Below are positions 4,972 through 64,000 of a stretch of 64,000 bases of DNA, piece by piece (position 1 is the first letter of the stretch; each line of letters starts with the position of its first letter). The DNA is from Kiritimatiellia bacterium (GTDB lineage Bacteria; Verrucomicrobiota; Kiritimatiellia; RFP12; UBA1067). The notes under the pieces were generated by a model that searched no databases, was not told the DNA's origin, and saw nothing but the letters and a program-made list of their open reading frames with translations. The position numbers were made by a program, and so were the translations under genes. The DNA is taken from positions 1,845 to 65,844 of the forward strand of contig JAZOQY010000057.1 of NCBI GenBank assembly GCA_045656285.1. Reading direction: 5' to 3'.

Positions 4972-7900
4972 CTACTTGATCTCCAATCTGATTTCATCGG
5001 AATTGCCGCGAAGACGAGGCGCGTACATAGCTTCGACTTTCGCGGGCAAAACGTGTATAACACCCGGCGTCTCGACTCTTACGCGATAGGTGAAAGAATG
5101 GGCGCCGCGTGAGATTTCTCTAAGGAAGATGGCCGTCTTCTTCTCGCGATTCTCGACATACGCCCAACCGCCGCCGAGATTCTTCCAACCGCTCATTCCA
5201 TCCAGCGGCTCAAAGCCCGCGCCCTTCCTGTCTTCGATAAGAATATACTCGTAGTCGTTCTTCGAGTCTAAATCGACCCGAATCTCAAGCGTTTCGCCCG
5301 CCTTGACCGCGTCGCCGTCATTGAGCGTAGTTAAGACTTCTTTCGTGCGCTTTTGAGCGAGCGACTGGCCTGAAGCGCCGCGCCCTGTCGAATCCTCAAC
5401 AACCTCACTTACGCGCGAAATCGTACGATTTACCTTAAGCTCAAGCCCCGCCGCTTTAATAGGCTCTTCGTATGTAAGGTAAGTCAAATATCCGCTCACG
5501 TATTTTTCATTTTTCTTCTCGACCTTGCGGCAATATTCGGCGAGCGCCTCAATCGCAAGCCCCGTATCGCGCGTATTCGTCCAATGCGTGCGCGAAATGC
5601 GGTTGTTGTACAGATAAAGCGCGAGGCCGCGCGTCGCGTCGCTCGTCGGCTCAACTTTCAAAAAGAGTTTCAGCGCCATTGCCTGAGCCTCGAAATCGCT
5701 GCCGTACCAGCACCACCAATAACCGTGGTTGCCAAGTTCAAGATACGCCGTGCCGTTTTCGGAATCCTCCTTGAGGAACTGCTTCAAGTTCCGCACTACC
5801 GTATCGCGCTTCTCGACTTCCCTGGTCAAATCGAACGCGAGGCCCAGAAGCGCTTGAGCATAGACAGGCAAGTCCAGCCGCGTGTCGTACGCAAGGCGCA
5901 TCATCTCTTTCGCCGTGGCGTCAGCCTTGCCGTCCGTAGCGAGCAATATCGCATACGCCGTAAGGACATCGTTCGCCCAAGGACGCGTCTTATGCTTCTT
6001 TATGTATCCCAGCGACTCCCTTTGACGCTCCTTCAGCCACTTTACGCCACCATCCATCACTGTGCCGGGAACTTCAACGCCATGGCGCTTCGCCTCGGCG
6101 AGCCCACGCACGATCGTCGCGGTCATGTGCTCATAGGAATGCTCGTAAGAGCCCCAGAACCAGCCCCAACCGCCGTCGGAATTCTGGCGCTCGGAAAGTT
6201 TCATAAGACTCTTCTCAATCAACTCGTCAACATCCTTCAACCTGTCGCCAAAGCCTCTGGCGACGAGAACGTCTCTCGCTGCCGCAGCCGGAACAAAGCG
6301 GTTCATCGTCTGCTCGTTGCATTCGTATTCGTAGTACTTCAGATAATCGAGCGACTTATCTATCGCGCCTGCGAGCGTATCGGAAACTTCGACCACGGCG
6401 CGCAAATCTTTAGCCTCATTCTTATCGGGAAGATTAAAACCGAGTTTCTTGTACATCTCAAGCGCCTCATCGCCCTCGTAAACCCTGCAATCCATTTTCT
6501 CAAGCGAAGAAAGAATCTTAAAGCAGCTCTCCGTCTTTTCGACGGCGTGTGAGACGACATCAAAACTCTTCTCTACGCCATCAGAAAGTTCAGCGTCCGC
6601 GACGCGCATGCGAGCGGTAAGTTTACCGGAAGAAAGAACCTTAATACGCCAATCTGCCCGCGCCTCGCCTCCGGCATTAATGGAAACTGTCTTTGAACTT
6701 GTATCGCCTTTGATTTCAACGCCCTTCAAATCGATTGAGGCGGTTACTTGTCGCGCTTTATCGCTGTAATTATGAAGATTAGCCGAAATAACAACCTCAT
6801 CCTTTTCGGTAAAGAATCGCGGCGTTATCATTCTAAGCATCAGATCTTTTTTCGTGATGAGCTCAGTCGCGACCTCCGCAACACGCCCGTCGATTCCGAT
6901 CGACCACACCTTTATATTCCATGTCGTAATATCTTCAGGCATCTTGAATTTAACGCGATAAACGCCCTGTGTACCCGTCGCTTCAAGCGCGGCGTTCCAG
7001 TATGCCGTATCGGCAAAATCCTTCCTGACGCCACCGGCTTTCGCACAGCCATTTTCCGAACTCACAGGAGAAAGACAAGCCATAGGTTCACACGCCACAG
7101 AAGCGTCACACTCCATCACAGGTTCAGCCTGAGGGGCCGCACTTCTCGACCTTTTCTTCTCTAATCTACTTCTGCCGATCGTTTTAGATCCGAGAAATCC
7201 GATCGCATATTCACCCCAAAGACCAAGCGGTCCAAAATTTTCATCACCAGAAAGATATATACAATTAAAGCCGTCAACTATCGTATTCAAAAATGAATGC
7301 GGAAAATTAAGGCGATCGAACCAAAACGCTTCTTTAAGACTTTTTACATTACTACCGCCCGCAATCAAATCAATCGCCTTGTCGTAAACGGTCATAACCG
7401 CTGATGCGTCTGCAGCCTTACCCTTCTCGTCAAAAATCTTAACGGTAGCCGAAACAGTTTCGCCGGGCTTTACGACTTCGAGGCCGCCATCTATCTCGAC
7501 AGTAGCCTTACCGATTTTATCGACCGGCGGCACCATAATTTCGCGAACCTCACGATGATACTTCGCTTGAGAAAAAGTCCACGCTTCAACAAAGAAATTC
7601 GGCTTGTCGCTTTCGACTACAGGAATTGATATTTCGCCCGTCTTGCCTTTAAGACGGAGAAGTTGGGTCTTACCGTTGCGAACTTTGTAAAAAACGGTCG
7701 AATCGGAATAGTCCGCATTGACCGTAAGTTTTACAGTATCGCCCGGCGAATAAGTTTCTTTATCGGGAATAAGCTCCAGCGACGAATACTTGTAGTTTCG
7801 CCCGTCATCACCCTCTCCTCTGACAAGAATTATGCGCGAGCCTTCACAAACTCTCCCTTTTATGTCAGTAACTTCAACTGAAACTCTGTACTGCCCGGGT

Positions 7901-55395: not shown

Positions 55396-55472
55396 TGGTG
55401 CGACTGACTGGGATCGAACCAGCAACCTTCGGCTTCGGAGGCCAACGCTCTATCCAATTGAGCTACAGTCGC
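55396..55472 (-). tRNA. tRNA-Arg (anticodon CCG), CCA encoded
   Basis: The reverse complement folds by hand as a cloverleaf:
- acceptor GCGACTG / CAGTCGC
- D arm GCTC / GAGC
- anticodon stem TTGGC / GCCGA with loop CTCCGAA
- T arm GCTGG-TTCGATC-CCAGT
- 3' ACCA. Confidence 0.93.
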
Positions 55473-57126: not shown

Positions 57127-59961
<2,835 letters not shown>

Positions 59962-59972
59962 TTATTTATTCT

Positions 59973-60001
59973 ATTATATCATTAAGAAACCCTCATGGCT
60001 A
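59973..60001 (-). promoter_or_regulatory. promoter TAGCCA-17-TGATATAAT for lacZ; the -35 is the terminal unit of CTAG block 1
   Basis: Minus strand: TAGCCA (60001-59996), 17-nt spacer, TATAAT (59978-59973) preceded by TGA. 26 nt to the ATG at 59946. Confidence 0.5.
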
Positions 60002-60335
60002 GTGGTAGAGAGGAACTAGATAGGCTAGAGTGTCTAGATGGGCTAGAGCCCTAGATTTCTAGAAATGCTAGACTTACTAGATGGACTAGAAGTTCTAGAT
60101 AATCTAGATAGTCGTTAGTCGCTAGTCGCTCTAGCCCCTCTAACCAATCTAGCCCGTCTAGTCTAGCCCCTCTAGCCCATCTAGCCTATCTAGGCTCCCC
60201 CTCGCTCCTAGCCCATCTAGCGCCTCTAGCCCATCTAGGCTCCCCCTCGCTCCTAGCTAATCTAGCGCCTCTAGCCAATCTAGCCTAGCCCCTAACTCCT
60301 AGTCCCTAGCCCCTCTCCCCCTAGCCTCGCCTTCA
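59997..60335. repeat. CTAG-dense block 1: two opposed arrays of a 9-bp unit (GGCTAGAn / nTCTAGCCC) around a TAGTCGY heptamer hinge
   Basis: I read 32 CTAG in about 325 bp, mostly spaced 9 bp apart. In the left arm CTAG is followed by A. In the right arm it is preceded by T and followed by C. A perfect palindrome ATTTCTAGAAAT lies at 60055-60066. Confidence 0.9.
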
Positions 60336-60972
60336 GCGCGGCGATCTCGCGCTTAAGCGAGGCGTTTTCGGCTTTCAGCGCGGCGATTTCTTCGTTTTGG
60401 GTCTTGCGCCGCCCTAAGCGCGCGGCGGTCATCCGCTCTCGAATACCGCCGTTTTCAGTAAAATCGGTTTCTTTGTTTTTAAGATGAGTGGCTATCATCT
60501 TATCAACCATATGACAAAGTGTATTGGCGCAATTAGCGAGCTCTTCGTCGGTCCACTTCTCGAAAAAAGGCTCATATTCTTCAAGCTTATTGCGCTGACG
60601 GCAAAACTTCAAAAGCCCGTCGTAACGCGGATGCTTTTTATCCCAGAGAACGAGCGAGCGCGAGCGAATATAATCAAGATAATCCTCTTTAAGTTCTTTA
60701 AGGCTCGCGCGGGCGACATTAAGAAGTTTAAGTTCCATTTCGGTCGAAGTAACGCCGTCAGCGCAGCCTTCAACGATGTTCTGCTTACCGCTACGCGCAG
60801 CCTGAATCATCTGATCGACGGTACGATCGCCATGACGAGGCAAAAAGCGCTTACAGAAAACATAAGTCATCTGATAAAGAACAACAGTCTTCTGATAGAA
60901 GAAGAGCTTCTCCCAGTTAGTCTGATCTCTAAGGATTTTAACCGGCTCTTTAGTAGGCTCATGTGGTTTCAT
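60292..60972 (-). CDS. four-helix-bundle protein (23S rRNA-IVS / Avd-like family) with suffix domain and C-terminal coiled coil
   Basis: NWEKLFFYQKTVVLYQMTYVFCKRF...DQMIQAARSGKQNIVEGC...LLNVARASLKELKEDYLDYI matches my memory of four-helix-bundle plus suffix-domain proteins. The C-terminus carries EEIAALKAENASLKREIAALKARL heptads. The last ~12 codons and the stop lie inside block 1. Confidence 0.7.
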   Translation of the reverse strand: MKPHEPTKEPVKILRDQTNWEKLFFYQKTVVLYQMTYVFCKRFLPRHGDRTVDQMIQAARSGKQNIVEGCADGVTSTEMELKLLNVARASLKELKEDYLDYIRSRSLVLWDKKHPRYDGLLKFCRQRNKLEEYEPFFEKWTDEELANCANTLCHMVDKMIATHLKNKETDFTENGGIRERMTAARLGRRKTQNEEIAALKAENASLKREIAALKARLGGEGLGTRS

Positions 60973-60981
60973 AGCAGTAAC

Positions 60982-61010
60982 ATTATAGCACTAAGCAAAG
61001 CCTCTGGCTA
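60982..61010 (-). promoter_or_regulatory. promoter TAGCCA-17-TGCTATAAT for the four-helix-bundle gene; the -35 is the terminal unit of CTAG block 2
   Basis: Minus strand: TAGCCA (61010-61005), 17-nt spacer, TATAAT (60987-60982) preceded by TGC. Only 9 nt to the ATG at 60972. Confidence 0.5.
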
Positions 61011-61320
61011 GAGAAAATCTAGAGAGTCGCTAGATGGGCTAGAGGGTCTAGATGAGCTAGAGTAGCTAGAGGGTCTAGAGCTCTAGATTTCTAGAAACGC
61101 TAGATAGGCTAGAGGTTCTAGACAATCTAGATAGTCGCTAGTCGTTAGCGGTTAGTCGTTAGTCTAGACTATCTAGCCCGTCTAGTCTAGCCCATCTAGC
61201 GCCTCTAGTTAATCTAGCCTAGCCCTTCTAGCCAATCTAGCCCCTCTAGCCCATCTAGTCTAGCGCTTCTAGCCTATCTAGCCCGTCTAGGCTCCCCCTC
61301 GCCTCTAGCCCCCGCCCTCG
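61006..61320. repeat. CTAG-dense block 2, homologous to block 1 (same arm/hinge/arm layout)
   Basis: I read 32 CTAG in about 300 bp, again phased at 9 bp. It shares long stretches with block 1: ctagatttctagaaa(t/c)gctaga, atctagatagtcg, atctagcccgtctagtctagccc, ctaggctccccctcgc. Confidence 0.9.
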
Positions 61321-61325
61321 CAACT

Positions 61326-61351
61326 AAAAAAGGCCCGGGTTGCCCCGAGCC
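61326..61351 (-). terminator. Rho-independent terminator after the surface-protein gene
   Basis: Minus-strand RNA forms GGCUCGGG-GCAA-CCCGGGCC followed by UUUUUU, about 30 nt after the stop at 61381. A T-run also follows on the plus strand. Confidence 0.75.
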
Positions 61352-61380
61352 TTTTAGTTCATCTAACCGCAATTCTGCGA

Positions 61381-64000
61381 TTATTCAGCGGACGTCGGCT
61401 GGCTCGCAGCTATCGGAGCGAAATCGACGAGAACGCGATAGAACGCTGCATCACCGATCGCAGGAGCGTTAAGCCCTGTCGTTACCGTAGCTTCGTCCGT
61501 ATCAACCTTATCGACAGCCGCTGCCGAGCGAACCGCGTAGTAAAGGCCAGGAAGCTCAGTCTCGAGCGCGACCGTTACATTGCCGTTCTCATCGAAGCTA
61601 ATGGCAGTAATCTCAGGCGTGACAACCGCTGGATTAAGCGCGACAGTTACCGTATACTTTCTTGTCGACTCATTAAGTGTAGCCGTCTTGGTGAAGTATG
61701 TAGCGTATGTCGCAGCATCAACGTCGGTTACACCCTCCGGAATAAGGATTTCAACCTTAGCCGCAGCCGCAGCCGCATCAGTAGCCGAAACCTCAATCGA
61801 ACCACTCGGCTCAATCGCCGGCTTCTCGACTACGGTGTAGAAGCCGTCAACAGGGCCTGTAATCTCATATCCTTCGGCTACGAACTTATCATTAGGCTTA
61901 GTTACATATTGGCCGCCAGTCAAAAGAAGAGAGCCTGTTGTTGTGCCGCCTGTTAAAGTTTGTTCTTCAACACAAATGTTTGAAACACTGATAGTTGCGC
62001 CATCATAAAACTCAAAGCCAAACCAGGCAGTAGAACTCTTAATTGTACCGCCCAAAAATTCAGCCCTAGCACCTCCCGCAACAGCGATTACAGCCGCGGA
62101 CTCACTCCCATTGTAGTCACCAGACTTCTGAAACACGCCATCGAGAACTTTAACCGCACCAGCCTTAACATTTAACAACCTATAGGTAGAAGCTTTATTG
62201 TGCACTACCGTATATTCTCCACCATCAATCTCAACATATGCACCATTATGCATACGAATACCATGATAATGCGTAGTGAGATTTACATTTACCAATTTAA
62301 GACTTATATTCTTAACAAGAATAGCTCCTTTATTACCTTCTGAGGCCACTGGAGTTTCGCAATAAATATTACCATTTTCAATAATGAAATCTGCTGAATT
62401 TTCATTTGCGAAATAAGCTAAAACACCACCATTAAGCGTCTTGCCGCCAAGGTCAATCGTGCCATTGAAGCCAGCAGGAATGGTGATATTCTCTGTCGTA
62501 TCCTTAATAAGCGTAACCTCAACACCAGCCGTTGTGCCCGCAGCCGTAAGAGCTTCCTGAAGCGTCTCATACTCCGTCTCGCCAATCTTAGCGACATTAT
62601 TCGAGACAGGGATTAGAGCTACAGTCCAGTAGCCATCTTCGCCTTCAGTAGCGGTATAGCCATCAGCGCACCATGTTGTTACATTATCATCTGTATTAAC
62701 AGCGGCAGGATTGAAGTCCTTGAACGTACCACCCTTGACAACAAAAGTGCCGGGTTCATCATTGCGGCTGTTCAATGTCCAACGAGGCGTCTGGCAAATG
62801 AACGTACCGCCGTTGATTTCGACAGAGCCACCATTTCTAACATAAATAAGGTCGAAGTGGGCTCCGTCTTCTTCGGACGTAGCACCTACGTTCGTATAAG
62901 TACCGCCATTGATAGTAACCTTACCACCATCTTTAGCCCAGACAGCCATGCACCAGTCATTCAAACCGAACGCATTAACCGTACCTTCGCCTTCGAGGGT
63001 GAGGTCGCCGCCAGCGACAACATAGAACACACCGTTACCTTCTGTATCATTGGTAGCAGCAATTGTCTTCCCGCCAAGGTTAACCGTCACCTTCTTGTTA
63101 ACGGTAATCGGGCCATCCGTAACAATATCAGCGATTACGGTAACAGTAGCACCAGCATTTGCAGCATTAACAGCAGCCTGAAGCGTCTGATACTTCGTTT
63201 CGCCAACCTGAGCCACAGGAGTTGCCGCGGTTACATCAGGTGTTGTGATTTCAGCACCGTTTTCACCAGAGTTGACCGTATAATCCTTAGAGGTCGAACC
63301 GTCAGCAAAAACCTTACCATCATCAGCCTTAAGAGTGAGTGTCACATCCGTGTTAGGATCAACAGCGATGGTGCCAGCTTCAACCACATTGCCATTTGCA
63401 TCATACCACTTAGTATTCGCAGGCGCCGCAGGAATCGTCACATTGACCTTCGCCACAGCGAGCTTGATGGTGTTGCCATCAACGACGTACTTGAGACCAG
63501 TAGGAGCGGTCGGCAAGGATGGCACGATGTCTGCGGCATTGTTGCAAGCGATGACCGTTTCGCCAGCTTCATCAGCGTGGGTGATGGTCAATGCACCAGC
63601 AACAGTAACATTGCCATTAACCGTCACCGGTCCCGCGAGGGTCGCGCCATCAGCGAGGGTAAATGTATTGACTCCTGAAATCGTACCTGAACCAGAAAGT
63701 GTGGACGTTTTGATTACAACAGGCTTTCGACCTTGACCACTTGGAACTCCATTAACCGTGCCATTAACTTCAAGGGCATTAAGTGTAATATCGTACTGAT
63801 TGCCCCAAGTTTTCAAGGTCAATGTATTTCCAGCAGCAACAATCAAGGTGCCCGTGAAACGGGAAAGGCCCGATGTAAAACCGGAATCACCAGTATTGCC
63901 AATCATTGCATTGGCATTAATCACAATCTTACCGGCGCCTGCGAATCCGCGATACAACTCTCCCGAGGATTGAATTTCGAGTTCGCCATTTACAGTAATG
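61381..64000 (-). CDS. large beta-helix / autotransporter-associated-repeat surface protein; its 5' end runs off the window
   Basis: The frame stays open to base 64000 (the M at 63957 in the track is a TTG). Gly/Thr/Asn/Val-rich beta-strand repeats. Two similar modules: VGETKYQTLQAAVNAANAGATVTVIADI and IGETEYETLQEALTAAGTTAGVEVTLIKDT. Confidence 0.7.
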   Translation of the reverse strand, partial: ITVNGELEIQSSGELYRGFAGAGKIVINANAMIGNTGDSGFTSGLSRFTGTLIVAAGNTLTLKTWGNQYDITLNALEVNGTVNGVPSGQGRKPVVIKTSTLSGSGTISGVNTFTLADGATLAGPVTVNGNVTVAGALTITHADEAGETVIACNNAADIVPSLPTAPTGLKYVVDGNTIKLAVAKVNVTIPAAPANTKWYDANGNVVEAGTIAVDPNTDVTLTLKADDGKVFADGSTSKDYTVNSGENGAEITTPDVTAATPVAQVGETKYQTLQAAVNAANAGATVTVIADIVTDGPITVNKKVTVNLGGKTIAATNDTEGNGVFYVVAGGDLTLEGEGTVNAFGLNDWCMAVWAKDGGKVTINGGTYTNVGATSEEDGAHFDLIYVRNGGSVEINGGTFICQTPRWTLNSRNDEPGTFVVKGGTFKDFNPAAVNTDDNVTTWCADGYTATEGEDGYWTVALIPVSNNVAKIGETEYETLQEALTAAGTTAGVEVTLIKDTTENITIPAGFNGTIDLGGKTLNGGVLAYFANENSADFIIENGNIYCETPVASEGNKGAILVKNISLKLVNVNLTTHYHGIRMHNGAYVEIDGGEYTVVHNKASTYRLLNVKAGAVKVLDGVFQKSGDYNGSESAAVIAVAGGARAEFLGGTIKSSTAWFGFEFYDGATISVSNICVEEQTLTGGTTTGSLLLTGGQYVTKPNDKFVAEGYEITGPVDGFYTVVEKPAIEPSGSIEVSATDAAAAAAKVEILIPEGVTDVDAATYATYFTKTATLNESTRKYTVTVALNPAVVTPEITAISFDENGNVTVALETELPGLYYAVRSAAAVDKVDTDEATVTTGLNAPAIGDAAFYRVLVDFAPIAASQPTSAE

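Follow-up and report, generated by a model that had tools for sequence, protein, structure and literature searches.

Introduction

Arrays of very short DNA cores at a fixed spacing serve as operators or centromeres in a few described systems, namely the ACTC tetramer boxes with 4-bp spacers of ParG (TP228 parH/OF), the 7-bp heptads of omega (pSM19035), which occur in direct and inverted orientation, and ParR/parC of R1; in pB171 the operon is flanked by parC1 and parC2. The present analysis deals with an array of the tetranucleotide CTAG, termed block 1, and with the gene for a four-helix-bundle protein next to it. Both lie in a stretch of 64,000 nucleotides from contig JAZOQY010000057.1 of a Kiritimatiellia bacterium (assembly GCA_045656285.1), which is referred to as the window. 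In terms of working principle, the operator and centromere arrays named above are the closest systems known to us. Their very short cores likewise stand at fixed spacing with free spacers and in both orientations, and these arrays likewise overlap the promoter of their binding protein and can flank the operon on both sides. A feature similar to parC or parH is that the second array of the window, block 2, overlaps the −35 element of the promoter-like site of the gene. Unlike these systems, the module described here is chromosomal, has a period of 9–10 bp and uses the most avoided word of its host as core, and many dispersed copies of the array exist without the gene.

The protein belongs to a family (PF05635/TIGR02436) whose members, including S23p, the intervening-sequence protein and relatives of Avd, are widespread and to our knowledge have no known function outside retroelements. 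We are also aware of no report of phased core arrays for this family. As with other members, the gene is a small “guest” in varied loci, yet the protein of the window adds a TIGR04258 suffix and a zipper. In the intervening sequence of Coxiella, two to three tandem heptamers stand just ahead of the S23p (PF05635) open reading frame (ORF) (PMC4990558); here, too, a 7-bp repeat is present, at the centres of the two blocks.

A conserved gene-plus-array module

Block 1 is real and highly non-random, and it is part of a conserved, apparently undescribed module of gene plus array. The sequence-only reading by which the block was noticed had listed 32 CTAG starts with a dominant spacing of 9 bp, and a recount returned every one of these positions (59999–60324). 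Of the 31 successive gaps, 19 are exactly 9 bp long and four are 18 bp long, the remaining ones being 5, 7, 8, 14, 15 or 17 bp; Tandem Repeats Finder reported periods of 9, 18 and 45. Outside both blocks only 11 CTAG were found in 63.3 kb of the window, compared to 240 expected from the base composition and 30.5 expected from a second-order Markov model. As this background corresponds to about 0.06 CTAG per 339 bp, block 1 concentrates a word that is avoided elsewhere in the genome. The earlier reading has to be corrected in that 32 further CTAG stand in a second, homologous block, block 2. The units of the two arms are indeed opposed in orientation (Table 1). That they are reverse complements of each other applies to CTAGA/TCTAG, which is common to both arms, but not to the G/C-rich flank, which is present in only one of them; the best inverted-repeat arms comprise 32 nt at 88% and 35 nt at 83% complementarity. 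The description of the block as non-coding with stops in all frames was slightly wrong, as the last 44 nt of the neighbouring minus-strand ORF (60972..60292) extend into its right end. An assembly artefact can be excluded, since independent assemblies from ENA, NCBI and Logan contain these arrays too, and related arrays also occur in a cultured isolate, Prevotellamassilia timonensis (L050). The statement that no element with such an architecture has been described was borne out insofar as nothing comparable, and no link of the gene family to repeat arrays or restriction loci, was found in the searchable literature.

The linkage of array and gene is seen from both directions. A scan for five CTAG at 9-bp spacing, with one genome per species, gave at least 120 loci, mostly from rumen or gut Bacteroidales and some from Victivallales, Kiritimatiellia and Verrucomicrobia. 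Among the matches listed, a few are perfect or coding repeats of another nature, but the majority are short and degenerate, with nothing but CTAG(A) held constant. In 5 of 120 listed matches the array is abutted by a homologue of the gene (50–60% identity), with arrays on both sides of the gene in three of these five (L093, L048 and L059). Starting from the gene, 80 metagenome loci were picked by protein similarity alone (49–73% identity). At least four CTAG within 350 bp were present downstream of the gene in 42 of 74 and upstream in 15 of 75 of these loci, over a background of 0.31 CTAG per kb, and the units are spaced by 9 bp (221 gaps), 10 bp (62 gaps) or 8 bp (nine gaps). A core-agnostic detector of phased 8–10-bp arrays, applied to the metagenome loci and to control windows, found arrays downstream in 35 of 60 loci (58%) and upstream in 22 of 62 (35%), compared to 9 of 613 control windows (1.5%). 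Where both flanks could be evaluated, an array was present on at least one side in 38 of 53 loci. As many gene-bearing contigs are only about 1 kb long, it appears likely that the arrays cause contig breaks around the gene.

Loci apparently without a CTAG array carry other cores at the same phase, namely CTATAG, TCTAT/ATAGA, CCTAGG or CCTAAG at period 10, CCGG, ACGG and GACTA. The array type follows the protein tree, and the phase stays at 9–10 bp while the core differs by lineage. All cores have a central pyrimidine-purine step and most of them are dyad-symmetric. The Bacteroidales arrays are non-palindromic, and their orientation relative to the gene is not fixed; it is the module, rather than the hairpin, that is conserved across Bacteroidota and bacteria of the Planctomycetes-Verrucomicrobia-Chlamydiae group. 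Two individual arrays deserve description. The downstream array of L295 consists of 37 units of CTATAR plus three nucleotides (CTATAACCA / CTATAGCCT), in which the sixth base alternates between A and G, so that the palindrome is broken and TAA/TAG is kept. The upstream array of L048 (3972–4411) has an 8-bp period and 54 units (CTAGGAGG / CTAGAAGC); it belongs to the same metagenome-assembled genome (RUG12186) as the orphan arrays of L019.

In an alignment of six orthologous upstream arrays, 94% of the CTAG columns and 60% of the spacer columns are invariant (gap-free columns; Fisher p ~1e-9), a difference which the aligner may somewhat favour, and the insertions and deletions among these arrays are whole units. 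Judged from this comparison, the cores of the arrays are under selection. Relative to the gene strand, 65 units contain CTAGA only, 62 contain TCTAG only and 96 contain TCTAGA. As neither strand is preferred and the consensus, tCTAGa, has dyad symmetry, the arrays probably act as duplex DNA. CTAG is the most avoided palindromic tetranucleotide in these genomes, with observed/expected ratios of 0.00–0.13 in the flanks of the metagenome loci, where CCGG reaches 0.41–0.53. In the far flanks of the group with TCTAGA arrays (L288–L312), 0 CTAG were present in 46.8 kb where 77–182 would be expected, nearly all CTAG of this group being confined to arrays; GATC, GGCC and CCGG are depleted in these far flanks as well. 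The arrays thereby explain where the few CTAG of strongly CTAG-depleted genomes concentrate. As the core is rare elsewhere, even a 4-bp word can become a specific address when it is repeated in phase.

The four-helix-bundle suffix protein

The hidden Markov model of TIGR04258 (“four helix bundle suffix”) matches residues 142–190 of the encoded protein with 52.9 bits (cut-off 40), while TIGR02436 scores 36.7 bits (cut-off 24) and PF05635 31.7 bits, slightly below its gathering score of 33.8. The N-terminal 140 residues fit both the models and the fold of PF05635/TIGR02436. In an AlphaFold2 single-chain model (pLDDT 72.8) a helical bundle is followed by one unbroken helix of residues 142–220, with low confidence at residues 171–190, which comprise a GG hinge and a basic stretch. 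The best PDB matches of this model are 2RLD and 2GSC (target TM-score ~0.8, probability 1.0, E ~0.04), and 2GSC, a PF05635 relative, crystallises as a homopentamer (PMC4990558). The C-terminal sequence EIAALKAENASLKREIAALKA is nearly identical to CC-Di, a designed parallel dimer, with which it shares the Asn at position “a”, and a profile of the C-terminal 60 residues matched zippers only, namely CC-Di, GCN4, Fos and VBP.

Six diverse homologues share the invariant residues G175 G176 I177. E179 R180 M181... R185... R189. The last of them, Arg189, sits 10 residues ahead of the first zipper Leu, which is the spacing of the invariant Arg in basic leucine zipper (bZIP) proteins. Proteins such as GCN4 likewise have a basic helix that is continuous with a parallel dimeric zipper with Asn at “a”, and a short dyad-symmetric target, although DNA binding is putative in the present case. 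In contrast to them, the window protein lacks the N-x7-R signature, with Met181 at the position of the Asn, and has a folded domain directly N-terminal to the basic stretch. The protein is thus bZIP-like in arrangement, yet outside the bZIP family. A 21-bp tandem periodicity within the ORF (60327–60390) represents the heptads of the coiled coil.

The sub-family comprises more than 7,500 clusters at 90% identity, with no exact match to the protein of the window itself in an exact-sequence look-up. PHROGs and PADLOC likewise yielded no match for this protein, and a phage origin of the gene was rejected as no homologue was found in IMG/VR. A conserved and testable cis partner, the phased array with a core of 4–6 bp that differs by protein lineage, offers the first concrete handle on the role of this suffix sub-family.

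Restriction operons and other contexts

In metagenomes, the neighbours of the gene are strongly enriched in subunits of type I restriction-modification systems, and this with polarity: upstream neighbours are HsdS in 8 of 58 and HsdM in 4 of 58 loci, downstream neighbours are HsdR in 8 of 60 and HsdS in 4 of 60. In L285, L313, L326 and L331 the array directly separates the gene from hsdR, with both genes on one strand. To provide a control, the genes next to the orphan CTAG arrays from the genome scan were inspected; these are ordinary housekeeping genes with no enrichment of restriction genes. The prrC gene is located between hsdS and hsdR, and in many relatives the gene likewise has hsdS or hsdM upstream and hsdR downstream of it, all on one strand. 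The two proteins are unrelated, though, prrC has no repeat array, and the module of the window is not beside restriction genes, so that the module evidently sits in many contexts. Accessory genes embedded in type I restriction loci, such as prrC, have been described (PMC12707154). The position between hsdS and hsdR suggests an unrecognised control layer or accessory function in the restriction systems of gut and rumen Bacteroidales.

Possible function of the arrays

The reading that we tentatively favour, and that we regard as plausible if not quite probable, is that the arrays are duplex-DNA binding sites for the adjacent dimeric protein and act on the promoters which they abut. The module consists of a phased array with promoter-like site, the four-helix-bundle suffix gene, and again a phased array with promoter-like site, and within the units of about 9 bp only a short, mostly dyad-symmetric core, here (t)CTAG(a), is held constant. 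The protein would dimerise through its C-terminal parallel zipper, place the conserved basic helix ahead of this zipper (GGI[RK]ERMxxAR) on the core and fill the units side by side, possibly aided by oligomerisation of the four-helix bundle, whose relatives crystallise as pentamers. Occupancy of the array might thereby set the transcription of the module and of the downstream gene, which is a beta-galactosidase gene here and hsdR in many relatives. Such control is conceivable because the arrays abut the −35 elements of the promoters of the gene itself and of the next gene. One gene family accompanies the arrays across phyla, their cores are conserved while the spacers drift, these cores are mostly dyad-symmetric and differ between protein lineages, and the arrays have no preferred orientation, all of which argues for binding sites. 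A protein that binds such sites should itself be dyad-symmetric, hence dimeric, and the encoded zipper protein is the obvious candidate.

Several observations weigh against this reading. A phase of 9 bp is shorter than the helical repeat, so that neighbouring sites face different sides of the helix. The basic stretch has no sequence similarity to bZIP basic regions, and the profile of the C-terminal 60 residues matched no PDB chain over this stretch; moreover, we know of no sequence-specific DNA binding by PF05635 proteins. The promoter-like sites are consensus matches. For most of the CTAG arrays listed in the genome scan, no homologue of the gene lies within 8 kb; similar arrays are also found on phage-like contigs without the gene. 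Conversely, 15 of the 53 loci with two evaluable flanks (~28%) have no detectable array on either side, and the close homologue at L138 has no array. The main weakness is seen in the basic stretch, which barely changes between lineages with different cores; no convincing case of co-variation between stretch and core was found. Either the basic stretch reads a half-site that most cores share (CTA/TAG) with variable spacing, or another factor reads the core. The 86–89% identical homologue of L138–L145 stands next to a Prim-Pol/AAA_25 gene in an island-like context and has only four phased CTAG, located within its annotated N-terminus, and no flanking array.

There is a smaller chance that the module is something categorically new that is tied to restriction systems. 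It might be a titration sensor for foreign DNA, a proposal to which we attach very little probability. The host would purge a short palindrome and keep it only in phased arrays, and these arrays would retain the four-helix-bundle protein at the next promoter, in many cases that of hsdR. If foreign DNA with many copies of the avoided word entered the cell, the arrays would lose their protein to it and the downstream gene would be switched, a boost of restriction being one example. Lineages would change their core as the avoided word changes, and array-bearing phage-like contigs could be decoys or exploiters.

What the binding-site reading assigns to the four-helix-bundle protein could also be a property of the DNA itself or the work of another host protein, such as a nucleoid protein or a methyltransferase. 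Flexible pyrimidine-purine steps (TA in CTAG and CTATAG, CG in CCGG) every 9–10 bp might make the segment curved or easy to wrap, and it could then modulate the promoters next to it or insulate transcription units from each other. This would fit with the central pyrimidine-purine step common to all cores, with a basic stretch that does not co-vary with the core, with orphan arrays that lie among housekeeping genes or in phage-like contigs with no gene nearby, and with the location of the window's arrays directly upstream of promoter-like sites. We nevertheless consider it unlikely: the two-way tight linkage to one gene family and the tracking of protein phylogeny by array type would be left unexplained, and curvature normally requires a phase of ~10.5 bp, not 9. 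Quite unlikely, in our view, is a mobile cassette of array, gene and array that moves between array-bearing sites, with the orphan arrays being empty landing pads or solo recombination scars. No recombinase, transposase or target-site duplication was seen, the spacers have diverged too far for efficient homologous recombination, and a search with tblastn found no gene remnants beside the orphan arrays, by which their origin as decayed cassettes was rejected. It is true that the gene occurs in many unrelated contexts (type I restriction operons, tRNA synthetase, malic enzyme, glycosidases), that Kiritimatiellae homologues of at least 86% identity stand in three contexts, and that a downstream array is present in L005–L013 but absent from L001–L004 at the same site. 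The stop codon of the upstream gene (61386) is also the very point at which homology between the window and related loci sets in. Yet, as the upstream genes of the window and of L001/L005 are related to each other, these contexts are not clearly independent insertions.

An action as RNA or as single strand, be it through a long hairpin (terminator, mRNA stabiliser, RNase III site or cruciform) or through a periodic RNA motif wrapped by the oligomeric protein, is very unlikely. The gene-strand RNA does fold with −169 kcal/mol (z −7.4 against dinucleotide shuffles, by which the units are destroyed; z −6.0 for DNA), and block 1 would be part of the gene's 3′ untranslated region unless a terminator stands in between. 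However, shuffling the order of units within each arm gave sequences that fold equally well (z −0.3 to −1.7), so that the palindrome consists of two opposed arrays and not of a co-evolved stem. As the flanking arrays of the Bacteroidales relatives are furthermore direct and not inverted, the hairpin as functional unit was rejected. Of the three roles proposed in the sequence-only reading, the comparative evidence thus favours the array of protein-binding sites and disfavours both the cruciform or single-stranded DNA site and the hairpin of a 3′ untranslated region. As for a periodic RNA motif, TRAP binds (G/U)AG triplet repeats in RNA at a spacing of 5–6 nt, and a ring-forming oligomer could likewise read a periodic core of 3–4 nt with free spacers, the core here containing UAG. 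In contrast to the targets of TRAP, the arrays have a spacing of 9–10 nt, some apparently lie outside transcripts, and they show no strand preference; since unit orientation is random relative to the gene strand, an RNA motif was rejected. Block 2 may even escape transcription, as it is located between a terminator-like and a promoter-like site, and Rfam gave no match. A point in favour of an RNA function is that RNase III stems flank the PF05635 genes which reside within intervening sequences of 23S rRNA (PMC4990558). The units could instead supply in-frame amber codons, either as a fail-safe run of stops or as a tripwire that extends the protein under a phage suppressor tRNA. TAG is in frame with the ORF in 29 of 42 loci with period-9 downstream arrays, or in 18 of 26 independent groups after de-duplication by hand where one third would be expected; in L093, L048 and L059 the first CTAG unit is the stop codon, and the gene occurs in defence loci. 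This frame bias could also arise because out-of-frame arrays add long tails that are selected against. Upstream and orphan arrays are at odds with such a device, arrays of period 8 or 10 run through every frame, those of CCGG or ACGG offer no stop codon, and the ORF of the window reads through several units out of frame, so that we hold it to be highly unlikely. Least of all would we expect a neutral by-product, in which replication slippage expands a functionless 9-bp unit beside the gene; this appears extremely unlikely. Unit number does vary among close relatives and local super-repeats of 18, 32 and 45 bp exist, but the core is conserved while the spacers drift, the arrays persist down to ~50% protein identity and across phyla, and they are made of a word which these genomes otherwise purge.

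Rejected identities

The likeness to iterons or parC proposed earlier would hold for the type of element, an array of binding sites, but not for its partners: there is no Rep, ParA or ParM protein and no ribbon-helix-helix protein. A parC/ParR or parH/ParG partition locus was rejected since the protein is a helical bundle and has no NTPase gene beside it in the window and in L001–L013. An iteron origin, with direct repeats of 17–22 bp and a rep gene, does not agree with units of 9 bp in both orientations and with a surface protein and a beta-galactosidase as neighbours. Similarly, a CRISPR array (repeats of 23–55 bp) does not agree with a period of 9 bp and a core of 4–6 bp, and repetitive extragenic palindromes and miniature inverted-repeat transposable elements fail on their defining features. 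For an integron attC or hairpin recombination site, pairing is not maintained, the relatives are non-palindromic and no integrase was seen in the flanks. The locus is not a 23S rRNA intervening sequence, as Rfam finds no rRNA in the 64 kb and one tRNA only. A diversity-generating retroelement was rejected as well: the neighbours are GH2, tRNA synthetase and amidotransferase genes, and there is no reverse transcriptase among the called genes of L001–L013; as regards pairs of template and variable repeats, the analysis covered 59900–61450 by a repeat scan. A coding tripeptide repeat was also rejected for this class of arrays, while it does apply to many of the generic-pattern matches on viral contigs and to L016, L018, L021, L027, L043, L057 and L074. 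Classing arrays as inside or outside of ORFs by six-frame translation is unreliable because period-9 arrays leave frames open, and it was therefore not used.

Anatomy of the locus

The features of the locus are listed in Table 1. All genes around the two blocks have the minus strand as sense strand, on which the large gene is followed by the terminator-like hairpin, block 2, a promoter-like site, the 226-aa gene, block 1, another promoter-like site and the GH2 beta-galactosidase gene.

Table 1. Positions of the arrays, signals and genes of the module within the window.
Feature	Position	Strand	Description
Block 1 (CTAG array)	59997..60335	none	32 CTAG, modal spacing 9; 3′ of the four-helix-bundle gene, 5′ of the beta-galactosidase gene
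Block 1, promoter-proximal arm	59999..60108	none	12 units, nnnCTAGAn on the + strand, nTCTAGnnn in gene sense
Block 1, centre	60109..60130	none	7-bp repeat TAGTCG[CT], 3.1 copies; unit orientation flips here
Block 1, gene-proximal arm	60131..60324	none	19 CTAG, nTCTAGCCn on the + strand, GGGCTAGAn in gene sense
Promoter-like site after block 1	59973..60001	−	TAGCCA-17 nt-TATAAT with TG extension; consensus match
226-aa gene	60292..60972	−	four-helix bundle (PF05635/TIGR02436), TIGR04258 suffix GGIRERMTAARLGRRK, zipper of 3.5 heptads with Asn at “a”
Promoter-like site after block 2	60982..61010	−	TAGCCA-17 nt-TATAAT with TG extension; consensus match
Block 2 (twin array)	61008..61308	none	32 CTAG, 5′ of the gene; arm-centre-arm plan as in block 1
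Terminator-like hairpin and T-run	61320..61346 (hairpin 61346–61330)	−	ends the upstream large gene
Downstream gene	57127..59946	−	GH2 beta-galactosidase; the promoter-like site after block 1 lies ahead of it
Upstream gene	61381..63957	−	large repetitive protein, no Pfam match; a related large protein precedes the module in L001–L013

The two blocks are paralogous: over 96 nt they are 78% identical, and they agree in their plan and in a trio of units spaced by 8 bp. In the promoter-proximal arm of block 1 this trio starts at 60043, 60051 and 60059, and it is present in all orthologous arrays. The trios at 60043–60071 and 61075–61103 form the palindromes TTTCTAGAAA (block 1) and AGAGCTCT (block 2), respectively. 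The trio, which is invariant across all orthologous arrays, may be a distinct site. The unit orientation of block 2 flips at its centre (61132–61164), which is made of 4.7 copies of the 7-bp repeat TAGTCG[CT]. The gene-proximal arm of block 1 has an internal super-repeat of 45 bp, and the stop codon of the 226-aa gene falls within it. Read in gene sense, this distal arm (60131–60324) and its equivalent in block 2 have GGG every 9 nt, which fits a G-quadruplex motif; this pattern is not found in the Bacteroidales arrays.

At both promoter-like sites the −35 hexamer overlaps the last CTAG unit of the respective block. The site after block 1 precedes the ATG of the beta-galactosidase gene at 59946, and the site after block 2 is invariant in six orthologous loci. 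Within 60972–60993, the −10 element of the latter, TGCTATAAT, ends 9 nt before the ATG of the 226-aa gene with no Shine-Dalgarno sequence in between, and the mRNA of this gene may, to judge from these positions, be leaderless or nearly so. Besides GH2, a tRNA synthetase and an amidotransferase are further neighbours in the window. The sole Rfam match at the gathering threshold in the entire window is a tRNA gene at 55399–55472 on the minus strand.

Arrays without the gene

Orphan arrays may be trans sites for the protein, solo scars or independent elements. Two cases of arrays without the gene are described here. In L063, from Verrucomicrobia UBA3783, an array of 53 CTAG units (5488–6034) merges into a repeat of ~27 bp (CTAGACTACGAAGTCCAGCCTT...), with no homologue of the gene within 8 kb. 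A phage-like lineage from IMG/VR (L210, L221, L365 and L371; also L357, L367, L374, L192 and L241) carries (GGGCTAGAn)n in several intergenic gaps. There, each array begins at the stop codon of the preceding ORF, and the number of units differs between related contigs.

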